Shown here piece by piece: positions 3,411 through 39,822 of a stretch of DNA of 64,000 nt. Source of the stretch: an uncultured delta proteobacterium (GTDB lineage: Bacteria > Desulfobacterota > Deferrimicrobia > Deferrimicrobiales > Deferrimicrobiaceae); assembly GCA_963811025.1 (NCBI GenBank), contig CAWEPX010000003.1:115190-179189 (forward strand), read 5' to 3'. A program made the translations under genes and the position numbers. The notes under the pieces were generated by a model, which ran no database searches, was not told the DNA's origin, and saw nothing but the letters and a program-made list of their open reading frames with translations. Position 1 is the first letter of the stretch, and every line of letters starts with the position of its first letter.

Positions 3411-3472
3411 CCATTGATGGTGGGGGACACTCCTGAGACGATCAACGATAACAGCCAGGAATGTCCCCCATG

Positions 3473-3566
3473 TGGCGGAGAGGGAGGGATTCGAACCCTC
3501 GAGGCGGGGATTAGCCACCTACGCGATTTCCAGTCGCGTTCCTTCGGCCAGCTCGGACACCTCTCC
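3473..3566 (-). tRNA. tRNA-Ser (anticodon GGA), long variable arm, CCA encoded
   Basis: Cloverleaf derived by hand: acceptor GGAGAGG/CCUCUCC, T-arm GAGGGUUCGAAUCCCUC, anticodon loop CUGGAAA. 94 nt. Confidence 0.9.
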
Positions 3567-3612
3567 GTACAACCCCGGTTCTCTTCGGCGGCACCGGCAA
3601 CTACCGGGAATC

Positions 3613-3638
3613 GGCGGCGGCTCCGGTTCGAATCCCCG
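3613..3638. repeat. 26-bp repeat copy 2, followed by CCGGATCTCCGG hairpin
   Basis: Exact match to 3385-3410. Confidence 0.6.
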
Positions 3639-3659
3639 GATCTCCGGCAATCGAAAAAC

Positions 3660-3753
<94 letters not shown>

Positions 3754-3816
3754 AAACCATCGGGGACGTTCCCGGTTCCCATTCGAGATGTGGAAGAGGA
3801 GTGTCCCCGCTCATCC

Positions 3817-3904
3817 TGGCGGAGGGAGTAGGATTCGAACCTACGGAAGCTCGCGCTTCAGCGGTTTTCAAGACCGCTGCCTTAAGCCACTCGGCCATCC
3901 CTCC
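3817..3904 (-). tRNA. tRNA-Ser (anticodon UGA), CCA encoded
   Basis: Acceptor GGAGGGA/UCCCUCC, T-arm GUAGGUUCGAAUCCUAC, anticodon loop CUUGAAA. 88 nt. Confidence 0.9.
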
Positions 3905-18317: not shown

Positions 18318-20618
18318 CTATACCAGCAAAACCAGAAGTTCCTCCGCCGCCTCCCGGAGCATCTCCTCGTATTTCGCCAGATTCGGCACCTCGCTGCCGT
18401 CGAGGAACCCCACTGCCCGTCCCTGCTGCTTCGCTGTGCCCCCGGAGGCGAGCACACGGTTGGCGCTCCCGCGGAGTCCCCTCCCCTCGTCCGTCAGCAG
18501 GTACCGGATCTTCGAGCCGGCCCGCAGCGTCACCCCCCGTCCGCACAGCTCGCGGGTAACCGCGGCGGCGACCGTGTCGGTGACGTACTGCTCCGGCGCC
18601 CTGGACAGGCGCCTCGCGACCGCCAGCGCCTCCGGCGGGACGCGCCCTTCCCGCAGTTCCGCCGCTGCGGATTCCACGATCTCCCGCAGGCGAGGCAGCA
18701 TGGTGCGCAGCGCGTCCAGGTTCCCGGCCTCGGCCATCTCCGCAAGCAACGCCTGCTGGAGGGACGCGACGAAGGGGGGCGTATCGGAGCGGCGCATCGC
18801 GATCCCGCGCGCCTTGATCCCGCCGCCCGCGAACGCCCCGACGAACCGGTTCGGGACGGCGACCGACGGGTTTCGCTTCGAGGGAAGGAAGGCGAGCCAC
18901 CGGTAGATCCCTTCCAGGGCGATCGGCATCCCCGTTTCGGCGGTGATGGCCTCCGCCAGCCGCCGGTAGTCTGCCTCCTTGGCGCCGGCGCGCACGACCC
19001 ACACGGCGTCGGTCAGGCCGTGCAGGAAGAAAAACCCCTCGCGCTCGGCGACCTCCTTGGCGCAGAGGAGCTTCTCCCGCCCCCAGGCGGTGACCGCCTC
19101 GTGCGCCTCGATCCGGCCGAACCGGGCGTTCCTGTACCCGAGGAACCCGAAGCAGACGACGAGGATCCACTTGAGCGCCGCCTGCCGCTTCCGGAAGAGG
19201 TCGCGCTCCTCGTCGGTGGCGGCCGTCCTCTGGCGTTCCTTGAGAAGCCGCCGTTTTTCGAGGACGGGGGCCAGCACCCCCGGGATGAGACCCCTGCGGC
19301 GGGCGCACGTGTGGAAGCCGATCTCGGGGACGGGGAGGCCCGGGCGGCAGCAGCGGCAGTTGACCGTCTCCGGGGAGATGTTGTACCGGTCCATGAGCGA
19401 CGGGTACATCGAGGCGAAGTCGAGCTCGCCCGTGTTTTCATGCAGGCCGGGCCGGGGCAGATAGGTGAGTCCCCCCTTGTCGGCCGTGACGAGCCCGGCG
19501 CCGGTCTTGAACTCTTCCGGCTCCCGCTTCTTGTAGGGTACGAGGATTCCCTGCGAAAGCGCCGCCGCGACCTGCATCGCCGAGATGGCGGTCCCCGGCG
19601 ACGAGCGGGCCATGCGCTGCAGCGGGATGCCGGAGAGGCGGCAGAGCTCGATCAGGCCCGGGAGGCCGGTCTCCCCGAAGAGGAACGAGTTGCGGGCGTC
19701 CACGTGCCACCGGCCGGAGAGGGTGTGCGGCGCGGCGCGGAAGATCACCCGCCCGTACGAGAAGTAGGACCGCTCGCGGGCGCGCCGGATGCCGTCTCTT
19801 TCCGGATCCTGCCCTTCCTGCGCGGGGCGTGCCCCTTTCCCGGTCGCCCTCCCCGGCGGTCGGGGGGCGCGACCGAGGGGGAGCGGCATGCGGAGCCGGG
19901 AGGCGAGGGCGAGCATCCGCGGCAGGAGGTAGTCGTCTCCGTACTCCGTGACGAGCAGGTCGGGGTCCGCGCGGGCCAGGAGCCGAAGGAACTCCCGGAG
20001 GAAATCCGTTCCGTTCTCCCAGCAGAGGACGTGGGTGGTGCCGTCGGCCGAGAAAACGAGCGGCTGTGCCCTTCCGTGCGCGGGGTGTCCCGTTCCTTCC
20101 GCCCGGAGGAAGGCGCGGGAGAGCGACGGGAGGGGAGAGACGACGTCCCACGGCGAATCGAGGGCGCGGGCGGAGAGAATCCTTCCGTCTTCCGCGCATT
20201 CCACCTCGGCGAAGGAAAACGGGAAGAGTCCGGTGGCGTACGCGAACTGCTCCTCCGGGGCGATGTCGGCGTTGGCGAGCGCCTCCGCCCCGAACGCGCT
20301 TTCCGCCTTCCGGACGGTCGCCCGAAGGAGGAAAGGCGCCGGGACGGCGAACGTCCACGCCGGGACCGTCCTGCCGGAGAAGAACTCGATCCCTTCGCCT
20401 TTCCGGACGTCGCATCTCCAGCGCCCGGCGGCGGCCCGGACCGCGGTCTCCCGCACGCTCCGGCCCGTCACGGCGAAGGAGGGGCGGAACGGGGCGAACA
20501 GGGTCACGGTGTCGCCGGCGGCCGTCCGGAACCAGACCTCCATCCCGTCCCGCGCGGCGAGGAGGTCGAGCACCCACCCGGTCAGGGAAAGGGCAGAGGA
20601 GTTCTTCAAACGTTTCAT
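18318..20618 (-). CDS. polB: family B DNA polymerase (Pol II-like) with variant motif C
   Basis: Motif A LDFASMYPSLM, motif B KWILVVCFGFLGYRNARFG, motif C HGLTDA in place of YGDTDS, and an exo-II-like YGDDYLLP. 766 aa from ATG 20618. The in-frame upstream extension to 20900 is low-complexity and is rejected as coding. Confidence 0.75.
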   Translation of the reverse strand: MKRLKNSSALSLTGWVLDLLAARDGMEVWFRTAAGDTVTLFAPFRPSFAVTGRSVRETAVRAAAGRWRCDVRKGEGIEFFSGRTVPAWTFAVPAPFLLRATVRKAESAFGAEALANADIAPEEQFAYATGLFPFSFAEVECAEDGRILSARALDSPWDVVSPLPSLSRAFLRAEGTGHPAHGRAQPLVFSADGTTHVLCWENGTDFLREFLRLLARADPDLLVTEYGDDYLLPRMLALASRLRMPLPLGRAPRPPGRATGKGARPAQEGQDPERDGIRRARERSYFSYGRVIFRAAPHTLSGRWHVDARNSFLFGETGLPGLIELCRLSGIPLQRMARSSPGTAISAMQVAAALSQGILVPYKKREPEEFKTGAGLVTADKGGLTYLPRPGLHENTGELDFASMYPSLMDRYNISPETVNCRCCRPGLPVPEIGFHTCARRRGLIPGVLAPVLEKRRLLKERQRTAATDEERDLFRKRQAALKWILVVCFGFLGYRNARFGRIEAHEAVTAWGREKLLCAKEVAEREGFFFLHGLTDAVWVVRAGAKEADYRRLAEAITAETGMPIALEGIYRWLAFLPSKRNPSVAVPNRFVGAFAGGGIKARGIAMRRSDTPPFVASLQQALLAEMAEAGNLDALRTMLPRLREIVESAAAELREGRVPPEALAVARRLSRAPEQYVTDTVAAAVTRELCGRGVTLRAGSKIRYLLTDEGRGLRGSANRVLASGGTAKQQGRAVGFLDGSEVPNLAKYEEMLREAAEELLVLLV

Positions 20619-20952
20619 GTACGCCTTCCGTTGCGTTGAGCGCCCGTTGGTGGAGTGCCGGTAACCGGGCCCCTGGCTCGCGCGGGCTTCCCATCGGCTA
20701 CGCTCGCCGCACCAGCAACCTCGTTCCACAGGCCGCCTCGTGGAACCCTCCCGTTGCCTCAGGTCACCGGCTGCCGGCGCAGCGGCCGCAGGAGGAGGGC
20801 CGGAGTGAGGTAAAGCGCAGCCGTGCAGGTTGACCGCACGGCGAGCCACGAACGAAGGCCCCCTCCGAGGCTGCGGAGCCGTCCCCGGATCCCCGGACAA
20901 GGGGCACGGGCACCCGCGGGGGAGCGGACACGCCGGGCGCAGCCTTCCGGGC

Positions 20953-21237
20953 TCACGGGAGGTTCCCCGAGGAGCCGGCGACCCGTCGCTCGAGCTCCTC
21001 CACGCGGCGCAAAAGCTCCCGTACCGCCCGACGCTCCTCGACGAGGATGCTCATCAGGATCGCCTCGAACGGGACGGCGCGTCCCGAGCAGGTGCAGGCG
21101 GCGGTGTGGTACCTTGCCGCGGCGAACAGTTCGTCGAAGAGTTCGCGGTCCTCGCGTCGCAGCGCGCGCCGGAACGCTTTCCACGACTCCTCTTCGCGGT
21201 ACAGCTCCTGGGTGAAGGGGAGCACCGTGCGGCCCAT
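20953..21237 (-). CDS. hypothetical 94-aa helical protein within the lexA-polB block
   Basis: ORF in the same orientation, 8 nt downstream of the ImuA-like gene. It is rich in charged residues and predicted coiled coil. Confidence 0.4.
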   Translation of the reverse strand: MGRTVLPFTQELYREEESWKAFRRALRREDRELFDELFAAARYHTAACTCSGRAVPFEAILMSILVEERRAVRELLRRVEELERRVAGSSGNLP

Positions 21238-21245
21238 ATTATGCT

Positions 21246-21986
21246 TTACCTTTCAGGGGGACACCCTTGCGATACCGTAAATGAAACGCAAGAGTGTCCC
21301 CCGCCAGACGCCCTCTGCCCTTCCCCTTCCCGGCGCAGGAGGAGGCACGGGTCGGCGATCCGGACGAGGTGGCGGAAGAAGCCGGCCCGGTCGCCCCCCC
21401 TGGGAGCACTTTCCTTTCCCCGCGGCATGTTCCCCGAAGCGGCGGGGACCGCTGCGAAGGGGAAAGCATCCGAAGCAGGGGGGTCCGAGCCGACCAGCAC
21501 TACCCGCGTGCCGCCCGCCGCGAGCCGGCGCAGGGACGAAAGACAGTTCCGGAATACCCGGCACGCCTCCGCGTAGGGAACGTCGGCGTCCGCGAACGTC
21601 TCCGGAAGCCCGAAGACGACCGCGAGCCCCGCCCCGGAGCGGTCGAGGGCGGCCTCAAGCCGCCGCGACAGGAGCGCCTCCATCTGGTGGCACGTGAAGG
21701 CGCGGGAGACGAGGATGCGGGAGAGCGCGGCCCTGCCGCTTCCGCCCAGTGCCCTCTCCGCCTTGCCGATCTCGTACGGGTCGAACCGGTTTCCGCCGTC
21801 CACCGCCACCACGGGCTCCCCGGCCACGAGGGGGCGGGCCAGCGCGCGCAGCGCCAGCCGGTGGGCGCCCGTCCCGAAAAAGCCGGCGAGCTTGCCCGGC
21901 GCGGGGCGCAGGCAAAGGGCGGAGGCGCGCTCGATGTCCGTGGCGGCGGGGGAGACGACCGGCGTATGGGGCGCGCGACCGGGCAA
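21246..21986 (-). CDS. ImuA-like (inactivated RecA/SulA-fold) SOS protein
   Basis: VVAVDGGNRFDPYEIGKAERALGGSGRAALSRILVSRAFTCHQMEALLSRRLEAALDRSGAGLAVVFGLP resembles the ImuA core, which lacks a Walker A motif. It starts 17 nt after the lexA stop. Confidence 0.5.
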   Translation of the reverse strand: MPGRAPHTPVVSPAATDIERASALCLRPAPGKLAGFFGTGAHRLALRALARPLVAGEPVVAVDGGNRFDPYEIGKAERALGGSGRAALSRILVSRAFTCHQMEALLSRRLEAALDRSGAGLAVVFGLPETFADADVPYAEACRVFRNCLSSLRRLAAGGTRVVLVGSDPPASDAFPFAAVPAASGNMPRGKESAPRGGDRAGFFRHLVRIADPCLLLRREGEGQRASGGGHSCVSFTVSQGCPPER

Positions 21987-22003
21987 GGCGGACTCCTTCG
22001 TTC

Positions 22004-22615
22004 CTACAGTTTCCGGAAAATGCCGACGACTTTCCCCGCGATCCGGAAGGACGGGAAGCCGTCCGGCACGTCGAGGGGGGCATAGGCGGGGTTGGCGGGC
22101 TCGAGGCGGACTCCTCCGTTGCGACGGCGGATCCGTTTGACCGTGGCCTCCCCGTCGACGACGGCGACCACGATCTCCCCGTCCTCGGCGGTCTCCTGCG
22201 CCCGTACGAGGACGTAGTCCCCCTCGCAGATGTGCGCCCCTTCCATGCTGTCCCCTTTCACGCGGAGGGAGAAGATCTCCCCCTCGCCGGCCAGCGAAGG
22301 ATCCAGGAGGAGTTCCTCCTCGGCGAGTTCAATCGCCTCCCGGGGGCTTCCGGCGGGCACCCGTCCCAGCACCGGGACGCGCAAGGGGGAAGGAAGCGCC
22401 GCCTCCCCGAGAAACTCGATCCGGCGGGGGGATTTCCGGTGGCGGCGGAGGTACCCCTTTTTTTCAAGCAAATCCATGTAATAAAAGGCGTTTTTCTCCG
22501 CGATCCCGAAACGGTCCGCCACTTCCCTCGCGGTGGGGGCGAAGGAGCGGGAGAGGACGAACTCCCGCAGGAACGTGAGAACCCTGCGCTGTCTGGCGGT
22601 CAGCGGCCTGCCCAT
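22004..22615 (-). CDS. lexA: LexA repressor (S24 peptidase)
   Basis: N-terminal winged HTH (LTARQRRVLTFLREF...) and C-terminal Ser/Lys dyad region (VKGDSMEGAHICEGDYVLV...GKVVGIFRKL). 203 aa. Confidence 0.9.
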   Translation of the reverse strand: MGRPLTARQRRVLTFLREFVLSRSFAPTAREVADRFGIAEKNAFYYMDLLEKKGYLRRHRKSPRRIEFLGEAALPSPLRVPVLGRVPAGSPREAIELAEEELLLDPSLAGEGEIFSLRVKGDSMEGAHICEGDYVLVRAQETAEDGEIVVAVVDGEATVKRIRRRNGGVRLEPANPAYAPLDVPDGFPSFRIAGKVVGIFRKL

Positions 22616-22646
22616 ATGGGTATGCTGACATACCCATATGGGCAGG
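22607..22646. promoter_or_regulatory. 40-bp perfect palindrome with two CCCATATGGG boxes, overlapping the lexA start codon
   Basis: CCTGCCCATATGGGTATG-CTGA-CATACCCATATGGGCAGG; 18-bp arms. The two 10-bp self-palindromic boxes are 22 bp apart centre to centre. Confidence 0.6.
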
Positions 22647-22672
22647 TCAAGGGGGTGTGGGAAAGGGGGTTG

Positions 22673-23455
22673 CTACTCTCCCCGGAAAGCGGGCGGCCGC
22701 TTCTCGAGAAACGCCCGCACTCCCTCGCGAAAGTCCCCGGTCCGGGCGGACGCGGCAACCCGCTGGCGCTCGTCCTCGAGCTGCGCTTCCAGCGGCTGGC
22801 ACAGTGCCCGGTTGTACAGCTCCTTCGCCCTCGCGAAGGCGAGAGTGGGGCCGGAGGCGATGCGCTCCGCCAGTTCCGCCGTCCCTGCTTCGAACGAGTC
22901 GTCGGGAAGGACCCGCTGGACGAGCCCCCACGCGGCCGCTTCTTCCGCGGTGAGCGTCCTGCCGGTCAAGGTGAGTTCCATCGCCCGCTGGGTCCCGACG
23001 GCCCGGGCGAGGAAAAAGGTGGCCCCGCCGTCCGGGGAGAGCCCGATGTTCTGGTAGGCGAGGGTGAAGCGGGCCGACTTCGCGGCGACCACGAGATCGC
23101 CGGCCAGCGCCATGGAGAACCCCGCCCCTGCCGCGACGCCGTTGACCGCCGAAAGGACGGGCTTGGGGACTCTCCTGAGGGACGCGATGAAGGCGTGCAG
23201 CCGGACCATGAGCTCCAGGAAGTTCGCGTCGGCTTCCCCCCGGAAGGTTTCCATCATCCCCACGTCGCCGCCTCCCGAGAAGGCCTTTCCGGACCCGGTG
23301 AACACGATGCAGCGGACGCCCGGGTCGTTGCCCAGGGATGAAACGGCGCCTTGCAGCTCCTTCCCCATTTCGAAATCGTACGCGTTCATCCGGTCGGGCC
23401 GGTGCATCCGGATCGTGGCAACGCCACCGTGCTTCTCGACGATTACCGTGCTCAT
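22673..23455 (-). CDS. enoyl-CoA hydratase/isomerase (crotonase family)
   Basis: [10 protein letters not shown]...[20 protein letters not shown] crotonase signature. 260 aa. Confidence 0.85.
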
Positions 23456-24810: not shown

Positions 24811-24847
24811 TAGGCTTTGTCGATTGGGGAGGGTGGCGCTAACCGAT

Positions 24848-38636: not shown

Positions 38637-38700
38637 CAGGGACGTTCCTAAGAACTCCTATCCACTATTCGTGAGTTCCTAGGAACGTCCCTGATACCAC
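38637..38700 (-). terminator. rho-independent terminator: 21-bp near-perfect stem (CAGGGACGTTCCTAAGAACTC / GAGTTCCTAGGAACGTCCCTG) with a T5 run on the minus-strand transcript
   Basis: Located between convergent genes. A-run precedes the stem on the plus strand, i.e. a U-run follows it on the minus strand. Confidence 0.75.
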
Positions 38701-39685: not shown

Positions 39686-39822
39686 CCCCCCTCCTTGTAT
39701 ATCGTTATGCCGTTGTTCCGGCTTCCCAATACATATCCGCGGAGAATCTCGCCCGTCAACCTTTTCTTTGTTCGATTGCGCATTTTCCCCTGATACAATG
39801 GGACGCCACGAAAGGAGGGACC

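Follow-up and report, generated by a model that had tools for sequence, protein, structure and literature searches.

We analysed a stretch of 64,000 nucleotides from an uncultured delta proteobacterium of the family Deferrimicrobiaceae (assembly GCA_963811025.1, contig CAWEPX010000003.1, positions 115,190 to 179,189 of the forward strand), hereafter called the window, and we focused on a long palindrome that covers the start codon of its lexA gene. Homologues with organism names likewise put the window in Candidatus Deferrimicrobiaceae, of the candidate phylum MBNT15. The gene lies on the minus strand, and an enoyl-CoA hydratase gene on the same strand ends 57 nt upstream of it. The features at the start of lexA are listed below; upstream and downstream are used in the orientation of lexA, and the promoter elements are putative.

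22004..22615, minus strand: lexA, encoding 203 amino acids with a winged helix-turn-helix domain, an Ala-Gly cleavage site, a Ser/Lys dyad and the recognition helix IAEKNAFYY
Complement of 22613-22615, minus strand: ATG of lexA, 6 nt past the -10-like hexamer, with no Shine-Dalgarno sequence before it; predicted transcription start
22607..22646, no strand: palindrome with arms at 22607-22624 and 22629-22646, 18 nt each, 100% complementary, 4-nt gap (repeat finder)
22620..22633, no strand: operator core GTATG-N4-CATAC, 14 bp; proposed site of one LexA dimer
22616..22637, no strand: footprint, positions +/-11 from the centre, 22 bp, as delimited in a per-position conservation table
22633..22642, no strand: upstream CCCATATGGG box, overlapping the spacer between the -35 and -10 elements; not conserved
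22611..22620, no strand: downstream CCCATATGGG box, in which operator flank is followed by the ATG and by bases 1 and 2 of a Gly codon
22645..22650, minus strand: putative -35-like hexamer TTGACC, read from the sequence, 17 nt upstream of the -10-like hexamer
22622..22627, minus strand: putative -10-like hexamer CAGCAT, at the palindrome centre

By its sequence, the product of the open reading frame at 22615..22004 is a canonical, complete and cleavable LexA. It matched the Pfam domains LexA_DNA_bind (PF01726, E=8.8e-14) and Peptidase_S24 (PF00717, E=1.6e-31), and it scored 183 bits against TIGR00498, the LexA equivalog model, whose cut-off is 111. In the alignment to E. coli LexA (7b5g), VPAGSP, GDSM and TVKR of the window protein stood opposite VAAGEP, GMSM and TVKR, respectively.

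The inverted repeat at 22607-22646 reads CCTGCCCATATGGGTATG-CTGA-CATACCCATATGGGCAGG in the window sequence. The first-pass annotation had described a 40-bp palindrome with perfect 18-bp arms that holds two copies of CCCATATGGG with centres 22 bp apart, one of them containing the lexA ATG, and no further copy in the window; both our reading of the sequence and the repeat finder bore out the palindrome, an exact search located CCCATATGGG only at 22611-22620 and 22633-22642, and the ATG lies in the former box, the downstream one. Copies with one mismatch were found only at 24843 and 61323, which is the chance level. The palindrome is far from a chance occurrence: it is the longest perfect inverted repeat of the window, the number of such repeats expected from the base composition of the window (62.6% GC, guanine plus cytosine) is 1.7e-4 per 64 kb, and the longest perfect arms in five shuffled sequences were 9-11 nt, against 18 nt in the real one.

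To reveal which part of the palindrome is conserved, we assembled 21 distinct lexA upstream regions whose LexA proteins are 55-99% identical to that of the window. They were obtained from contig look-ups, from a genome scan with the LexA protein (at least eight close relatives) and from a metagenome scan with the 18-base consensus ATATGTATGNNNNCATACATAT. The last of these returned at least 120 matches, nearly all in TA-rich, microsatellite-like DNA from a few samples, and the informative ones among the matches listed were L185, L261 and L270, all lexA loci, together with L188. One of the regions, L011, comes from a 3.7-kb contig (DATHRT010000089.1) with a LexA 97% identical to that of the window and the same operator, and it is binned as 'Candidatus Limnocylindria' (Chloroflexota); this label probably reflects a binning error rather than gene transfer.

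The comparison revealed that the pattern GTATR-N4-YATAC occurs exactly once per region, directly before lexA, in all 21 of the distinct regions, centred on what the first-pass annotation had read as an inner stem and a loop. Each of the first 17 related loci fetched already carried one copy before lexA, whereas none of 37 lexA loci of other phyla did, and an exact match to GTATRNNNNYATAC was present as a single copy in the window. Positions 3-7 from the centre showed no variation and were paired in every one of the 20 aligned regions, and L306 had the same core; positions 8-11 were strongly conserved, while positions from 12 outwards were conserved only inside the window's own clade. The lineage consensus is ATATGTATG-N4-CATACATAT, and the window site reads ATGGGTATG-N4-CATACCCAT and scored 28.5 bits with the position weight matrix. 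The lexA sites scored 28-38 bits as a group, and the best other match in the flanks of the related loci reached 13.5 bits. A core match with one mismatch at 39697-39710 was rejected as an operator; it scored below 12 bits and adjoins a Shine-Dalgarno sequence.

The members of a more distant clade, whose LexA is about 55% identical to that of the window (L016, L175, L177 and L179; GC content 53-59%), carry the site as a 22-bp palindrome, perfect except in the spacer of L175. In this clade lexA has a leader of 20-46 nt with a clear Shine-Dalgarno sequence and the palindrome is found 21-46 nt upstream of the start codon; the dyad lies 17 nt after TTTACA, TTTACT or TTGACC and has TAACAT or TAGCAT at its centre. 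Because the same dyad is kept in front of a leader, it evidently goes with the promoter and is independent of the coding sequence. In leaderless and leadered contexts alike, the site is kept before lexA orthologues in 21 of 21 regions while the surrounding intergenic DNA diverges.

In the window, the proposed promoter consists of TTGACC, 17 nt, CAGCAT, 6 nt and the ATG. At the -10-like position the orthologues have CAACAT, TAACAT, TAGCAT, TAGTAT or TACTAT; the clade whose LexA is 80% identical or more, as well as L179, shares the -35-like hexamer; and the ATG lies 6-7 nt past the -10-like hexamer in every Deferrimicrobiaceae region. The proposal is based on this geometry, which is conserved across orthologues, and not on a promoter scanner. 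The dyad is centred on the putative -10 hexamer and ends no more than 5 nt from the ATG. lexA lacks a Shine-Dalgarno sequence, unlike the three operon genes downstream of it and the enoyl-CoA hydratase gene, all of which have a Shine-Dalgarno-like sequence before them; the underlying survey took the first possible start codon of each open reading frame and is crude and noisy, so that only the comparison within the operon was used. These observations suggest a probably leaderless lexA mRNA in the Deferrimicrobiaceae, with the A of the ATG as its first nucleotide.

The DNA further upstream varies among the relatives. In the GWC2_65_14 genome (L007, 2900-2960) the 3'-terminal ~60 nt of the enoyl-CoA hydratase gene persist upstream of lexA and the rest of the gene is gone, so that the region upstream of the operator has, by its sequence, evidently been remodelled recently. 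In the clade with LexA about 70% identical (L300, 5260-5931; L301, 5262-5933; the P0167 contig), a gene for SRAP, the SOS-response-associated peptidase, lies directly upstream of lexA on the same strand and replaces the hydratase gene; ahead of SRAP itself, nothing resembling the operator was found.

The operator also varies together with the protein. IAEKNAFYY, or a sequence close to it, forms the recognition helix of every LexA protein associated with the dyad; E. coli LexA and the aligned LexA proteins of other phyla have a helix with one residue more. IAEKN[AG]FYY pairs with GTATG...CATAC in 17 regions, and IAVKNGFYY pairs with GTATA...TATAC in the four others (L009, L015, L301 and L306). 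Where Val replaces Glu at the start of the helix, half-site position 5 is A:T instead of G:C, which amounts to a simple switch of recognition. The replaced residue is the N-terminal end of helix alpha-3 in position, the helix that gives most of the base-specific contacts of LexA and to whose N-terminal part changes in specificity have been mapped (PMC4951493). In addition, self-repression of LexA at a dyad in its own promoter is a general rule (PMC8565304). Together, the helix covariation and this rule make LexA by far the likeliest binder of the dyad. An outgroup LexA with a different helix (P0161, GPRGPQKTL) has another palindrome, GGTCTACAAATGTAGACC, at its promoter. In L303 (5930-6000), and also in L304 and L305, the outgroup lexA heads a lexA-dinB operon, and its promoter TTGACA-N17-TTATAT is followed immediately by GGTCTACAAATGTAGACC, which by sequence is a candidate for another uncharacterised LexA motif.

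Taken together, these results make it highly likely that the palindrome holds an autoregulatory LexA operator for a single dimer, with GTATG-N4-CATAC at its centre, over the lexA promoter. We infer that one LexA dimer binds the central 14-22 bp. The dyad would cover the -10 element and reach the transcription start, and bound LexA would for this reason exclude RNA polymerase. Upon DNA damage, RecA-stimulated self-cleavage of LexA would free the promoter and induce lexA and, probably as one operon, the iRadA-PPB2-PolB2 genes for a translesion 'mutasome' that lie downstream. Part of the first-pass annotation's proposal of a lineage-specific LexA box is therefore retained: a LexA operator very probably does cover the lexA start, and it matches neither CTGT-N8-ACAG nor GAAC-N4-GTTC. 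The box itself has to be moved, from CCCATATGGG to the central GTATG-N4-CATAC.

Several observations weigh against this interpretation. First, the window site departs from the lineage consensus at positions 8-10 of both arms (GGG/CCC instead of ATG/CAT). Second, no second operator was found before any other gene in the window or in the flanks of the related loci, a coverage outside which the recA and uvrA loci lie; in the window, the position-weight-matrix scan returned nothing else of 12 bits or more. Third, the covariation of helix and operator probably represents a single evolutionary event in four sequences. Fourth, a -35 element is unrecognisable in the clade with LexA about 70% identical, and a consensus promoter scanner called no promoter at 22450-22850, because the -10-like hexamer is weak and matches the consensus at 3 of 6 positions. 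Fifth, in relatives whose LexA is 87% identical or more the outer arms are near-perfect (14-18 of 18 nt complementary), which a single-dimer site does not account for. Finally, a consensus site lies on L188, and at the GC content of that contig a chance match seems unlikely. This site (672-693) is a perfect ATATGTATGCAAGCATACATAT on an otherwise unrelated soil contig of 63% GC, 60-80 bp upstream of a gene for an FrsA-like esterase, and neither lexA nor PPB2 was found within 11.9 kb of it.

The history of the outer arms can be followed in the close relatives. Both CCCATATGGG boxes are intact in only 2 of the 21 distinct regions, namely the window strain (identical in L001 and L002) and L012. 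In genomes with a LexA 90-99% identical, the upstream box reads CCCATATAGG, CCCGTATAGG, CCCGCATAGG or CCCGGATATG, and it is absent from more distant relatives; the downstream box is kept in 8 of the 21, all of them from the clade whose LexA starts with Met-Gly. The downstream copy is laid out as CATAC-CCAT-ATG-GG and the upstream copy is its mirror image. Each 10-mer covers positions 7-16 from the centre, so that one half belongs to the operator flank and the other lies outside it. Counted from the alignment, the number of complementary arm positions out of 18 is 18 in the window, 17 in L012, 16 in L010, L011 and L014, and 14-15 in L017, L013, L004 and L006, and beyond position 11 complementarity is near chance in the distant clades. 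Where the left arm has an A at position 9, the unmatched C of the right arm is kept in 4 of 5 regions, and a compensating change is seen only in L014. The decaying complementarity and the unmatched changes in relatives indicate that the perfect outer arms are a recent, strain-specific state. On this sequence evidence, the palindrome has recently been extended by the outer 7-9 nt of each arm, an extension specific to the window's clade and perfect only in the window strain, and the twin CCCATATGGG boxes are a strain-specific by-product and not recognition units. The outer arms may be neutral, for example the product of a template-switch 'correction' of a quasi-palindrome, or they may result from weak selection in favour of a hairpin. 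Taken by themselves, the perfect 40-bp palindrome and the pair of 10-mers matter little more widely.

Could the palindrome act mainly as a nucleic-acid hairpin, either as an RNA stem of 18 bp that masks the start codon of lexA or as one that stops read-through from the hydratase gene, by blocking or by termination? Folding predicted a stem of very high stability (-66 kcal/mol for a region of 141 nt, z = -4.4), and the 18-bp stem is present in both the minimum-energy and the centroid structures; the extended arms (14-18 of 18) are found mostly in the clade with a co-directional hydratase gene, or its remnant, just upstream, and L014 has the one compensatory pair (A...T for G...C). However, there is no U-tract past the stem, where the next sequence is CCGCUGACC, and no terminator was found on either strand at 22450-22850. 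No family in Rfam 15 was matched; only generic hairpin matches of 18-22 bits were returned, against gathering scores of 74-84. With transcription starting at the ATG, the 5' arm would be absent from lexA's own mRNA. Moreover, the outer arms gather unpaired changes in sister genomes, L300 and L301 have a co-directional upstream gene (SRAP) and yet no extended palindrome, and the relatives with a leader have no extended palindrome either. The hairpin over the start codon that the first-pass annotation had predicted thus folds as a stable stem in the model, but it is unlikely to form in the transcript of lexA itself, whose upstream arm would not be transcribed; a hairpin in read-through transcripts from the upstream gene is possible. 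As the main function of the palindrome we consider a hairpin improbable, and such a role could add to LexA binding. A similarly small chance is given to the idea that the extended palindrome of 36-40 bp places an error-prone polymerase operon under a second level of control, through a cruciform or hairpin that would gate the leaderless promoter and the start codon and insulate the lexA-PolB2 operon from read-through, or through extra LexA dimers on the outer arms. The outer boxes were also considered as degenerate tandem LexA sites and rejected, with no overlapping 14-mer resembling GTATG-N4-CATAC.

Another regulator, whose gene lies in the cassette or elsewhere, might bind the dyad instead of LexA. 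The dyad is invariably accompanied by the complete lexA-iRadA-PPB2(-PolB2) module, and LexA can therefore not be picked out by co-occurrence alone; the perfect consensus on L188, with no lexA within 11.9 kb, would fit such a regulator. Nevertheless, the dyad covaries with the LexA recognition helix, the rule of LexA self-repression points to the same protein, and the other proteins of the cassette are described as polymerase subunits (PMC11791011), which leaves this alternative very improbable. The proposal of the first-pass annotation was a dimer of dimers in which each CCCATATGGG is a LexA box and two dimers sit two helical turns apart; although both 10-mers are perfect in the window strain at the 22-bp distance and tandem LexA sites in lexA promoters are known from E. 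coli and Verrucomicrobia (PMC4951493), it is likewise very improbable, because the upstream box is mutated in genomes with LexA 90-99% identical and the same recognition helix and is lost further out while the central dyad stays, the downstream box is retained solely where Met-Gly is encoded by it, the window holds no other copy, the half-sites of the 10-mer are closer together than in any cited LexA motif, and the 10-mers are poorly conserved where the central GTATR-N4-YATAC is invariant in 21 of 21 regions.

With a single-dimer LexA operator over the lexA promoter as the preferred reading, the genes it would control are of interest. Downstream of lexA, the window contains the following.

21246..21986, minus strand: iRadA-like gene, 246 amino acids, RadA/Rad51 fold, no Walker A motif
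20953..21237, minus strand: PPB2-like gene, a small helical protein of 94 amino acids (Pfam DUF8156, PF26485) with the N-terminus MGRTVLPF
18318..20618, minus strand: PolB2-like gene, an archaeal-type family-B DNA polymerase (Pfam DNA_pol_B), with the start taken from the public gene call

The first gene had been labelled 'ImuA-like' in the first-pass annotation, and iRadA is the better name: a family profile built from 8 orthologues matched archaeal RadA (E=1e-6), the Walker A pattern GxxxxGK[ST] was not found in the protein, and the gene order agrees. The polymerase matched the NCBIfam PRK05761 subfamilies with E=4e-106, a score below the model cut-offs. A gap of 334 bp (20619-20952) lies between PPB2 and the called polymerase start. 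Judged by its sequence features, 18318-22615 on the minus strand corresponds to a bacterial PolB2 'mutasome' operon, with the gene order, the MGRT N-terminus and a RadA fold lacking the ATPase motif all present. We infer co-transcription of these genes, and by the arrangement of the locus the dyad probably controls lexA and the iRadA-PPB2-PolB2 genes downstream.

Such operons have been described by Timinskas, Timinskas and Venclovas in 2025 (PMC11791011). In that paper, the iRadA-PPB2-PolB2 order, the MGRT motif at the start of PPB2 and an iRadA without the ATPase motif are given as they are found here, lexA and SRAP are named as enriched neighbours of bacterial PolB2 operons, and the iRadA-PPB2-PolB2 order is the only one reported for bacteria. 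In our data, lexA is adjacent in all relatives and SRAP in some. The passages of it consulted treat lexA only as an enriched neighbour (two mentions of LexA) and give no operator or LexA motif. Our loci also differ from the operon described there, in that polB2 is divergent from lexA-iRadA-PPB2 in L175, L176 and L185 and does not form the operon end. In these members of the clade with LexA about 55% identical (L175, 7649-11559; L176; L185), an intergenic region of 204 bp separates polB2 from lexA-iRadA-PPB2, and the opposite strand of the operator also presents a -10-like TAACAT, which TTGATC precedes at a distance of 17 nt. By its sequence, one operator might serve both divergent promoters in this clade.

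Other repeats of the window were also recorded. The second most striking inverted repeat, at 38637-38693, has 21-nt arms that are 95% complementary with a 15-nt gap (CAGGGACGTTCCTAAGAACTC / GAGTTCCTAGGAACGTCCCTG); it lies between two convergent open reading frames and by its sequence may be a bidirectional terminator. Hairpins at 21256-21302 and 3421-3470, in the 3' end of iRadA and beside a tRNA-Ser gene, respectively, have a common stem of the GGGGGACAC...GTGTCCCCC type, and GGGGGACAC is present in four copies, marginally above chance. The minus strand at 3473-3904 carries three tRNA-Ser genes with anticodons GGA, GCT and TGA, and in an inverted repeat at 3625-3685 the 3' end of one of them (3661-3753) pairs with adjoining intergenic sequence.

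The LexA motif has changed many times, which is unusual among bacterial regulators, and 17 motifs had been reported by 2021 (PMC8565304). GTATG-N4-CATAC matches none of CTGT-N8-ACAG, GAAC-N4-GTTC, GTTC-N7-GTTC, TGTTC-N4-GAACA, TTAC-N3-GTAA and GGTT-N10-AACC, and no published report of it was found in a literature search of incomplete coverage. It resembles in layout GAAC-N4-GTTC, the Cheo box of Firmicutes and Actinobacteria, which is also a 14-bp dyad of 5-bp half-sites with a 4-bp spacer on lexA and SOS promoters and which is bound by one LexA dimer through helix alpha-3 (PMC4951493). The half-site here is (AT)GTATG and not CGAAC, and the helix here, IAEKNAFYY, is rich in aromatic residues. 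The motif of Verrucomicrobia, TGTTC-N4-GAACA, shares the 5-N4-5 geometry, was likewise first inferred from a comparison of lexA promoters, and controls lexA together with a mutagenesis cassette, sometimes as one lexA-cassette operon (PMC4951493). It differs in sequence and often occurs as true tandem sites in lexA promoters, whereas a single site is conserved here, and it is backed by gel-shift and mutagenesis experiments, whereas GTATG-N4-CATAC is known from sequence. The lexA promoter of E. coli, with two CTGT-N8-ACAG boxes, is likewise autoregulated by operators that overlap the promoter and offers a precedent for the two-box idea; however, its dyad is longer and both of its boxes fit the regulon-wide consensus, whereas the 10-mers of the window fit none and the real site lies between them. 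In L020 and L021 (Gemmatimonadaceae), direct repeats of the GTTC-N7-...GTTC type (AACGTTCGGGTACCCTTCGTTCGGGACCTGTTCGG) that resemble the LexA motif of Alphaproteobacteria are present ~40-80 nt upstream of lexA.

The relevance of these findings is mainly to the evolution of the SOS response and to research on the PolB2 mutasome. Should it be confirmed, GTATG-N4-CATAC would give the uncultured MBNT15/Deferrimicrobiota lineage and a related clade their first LexA motif, and their SOS regulons would become readable directly from metagenome-assembled genomes. It would also offer a regulatory handle on the bacterial PolB2 mutasome, an archaeal-derived translesion complex whose only link to DNA damage in bacteria has so far been its proximity to lexA.

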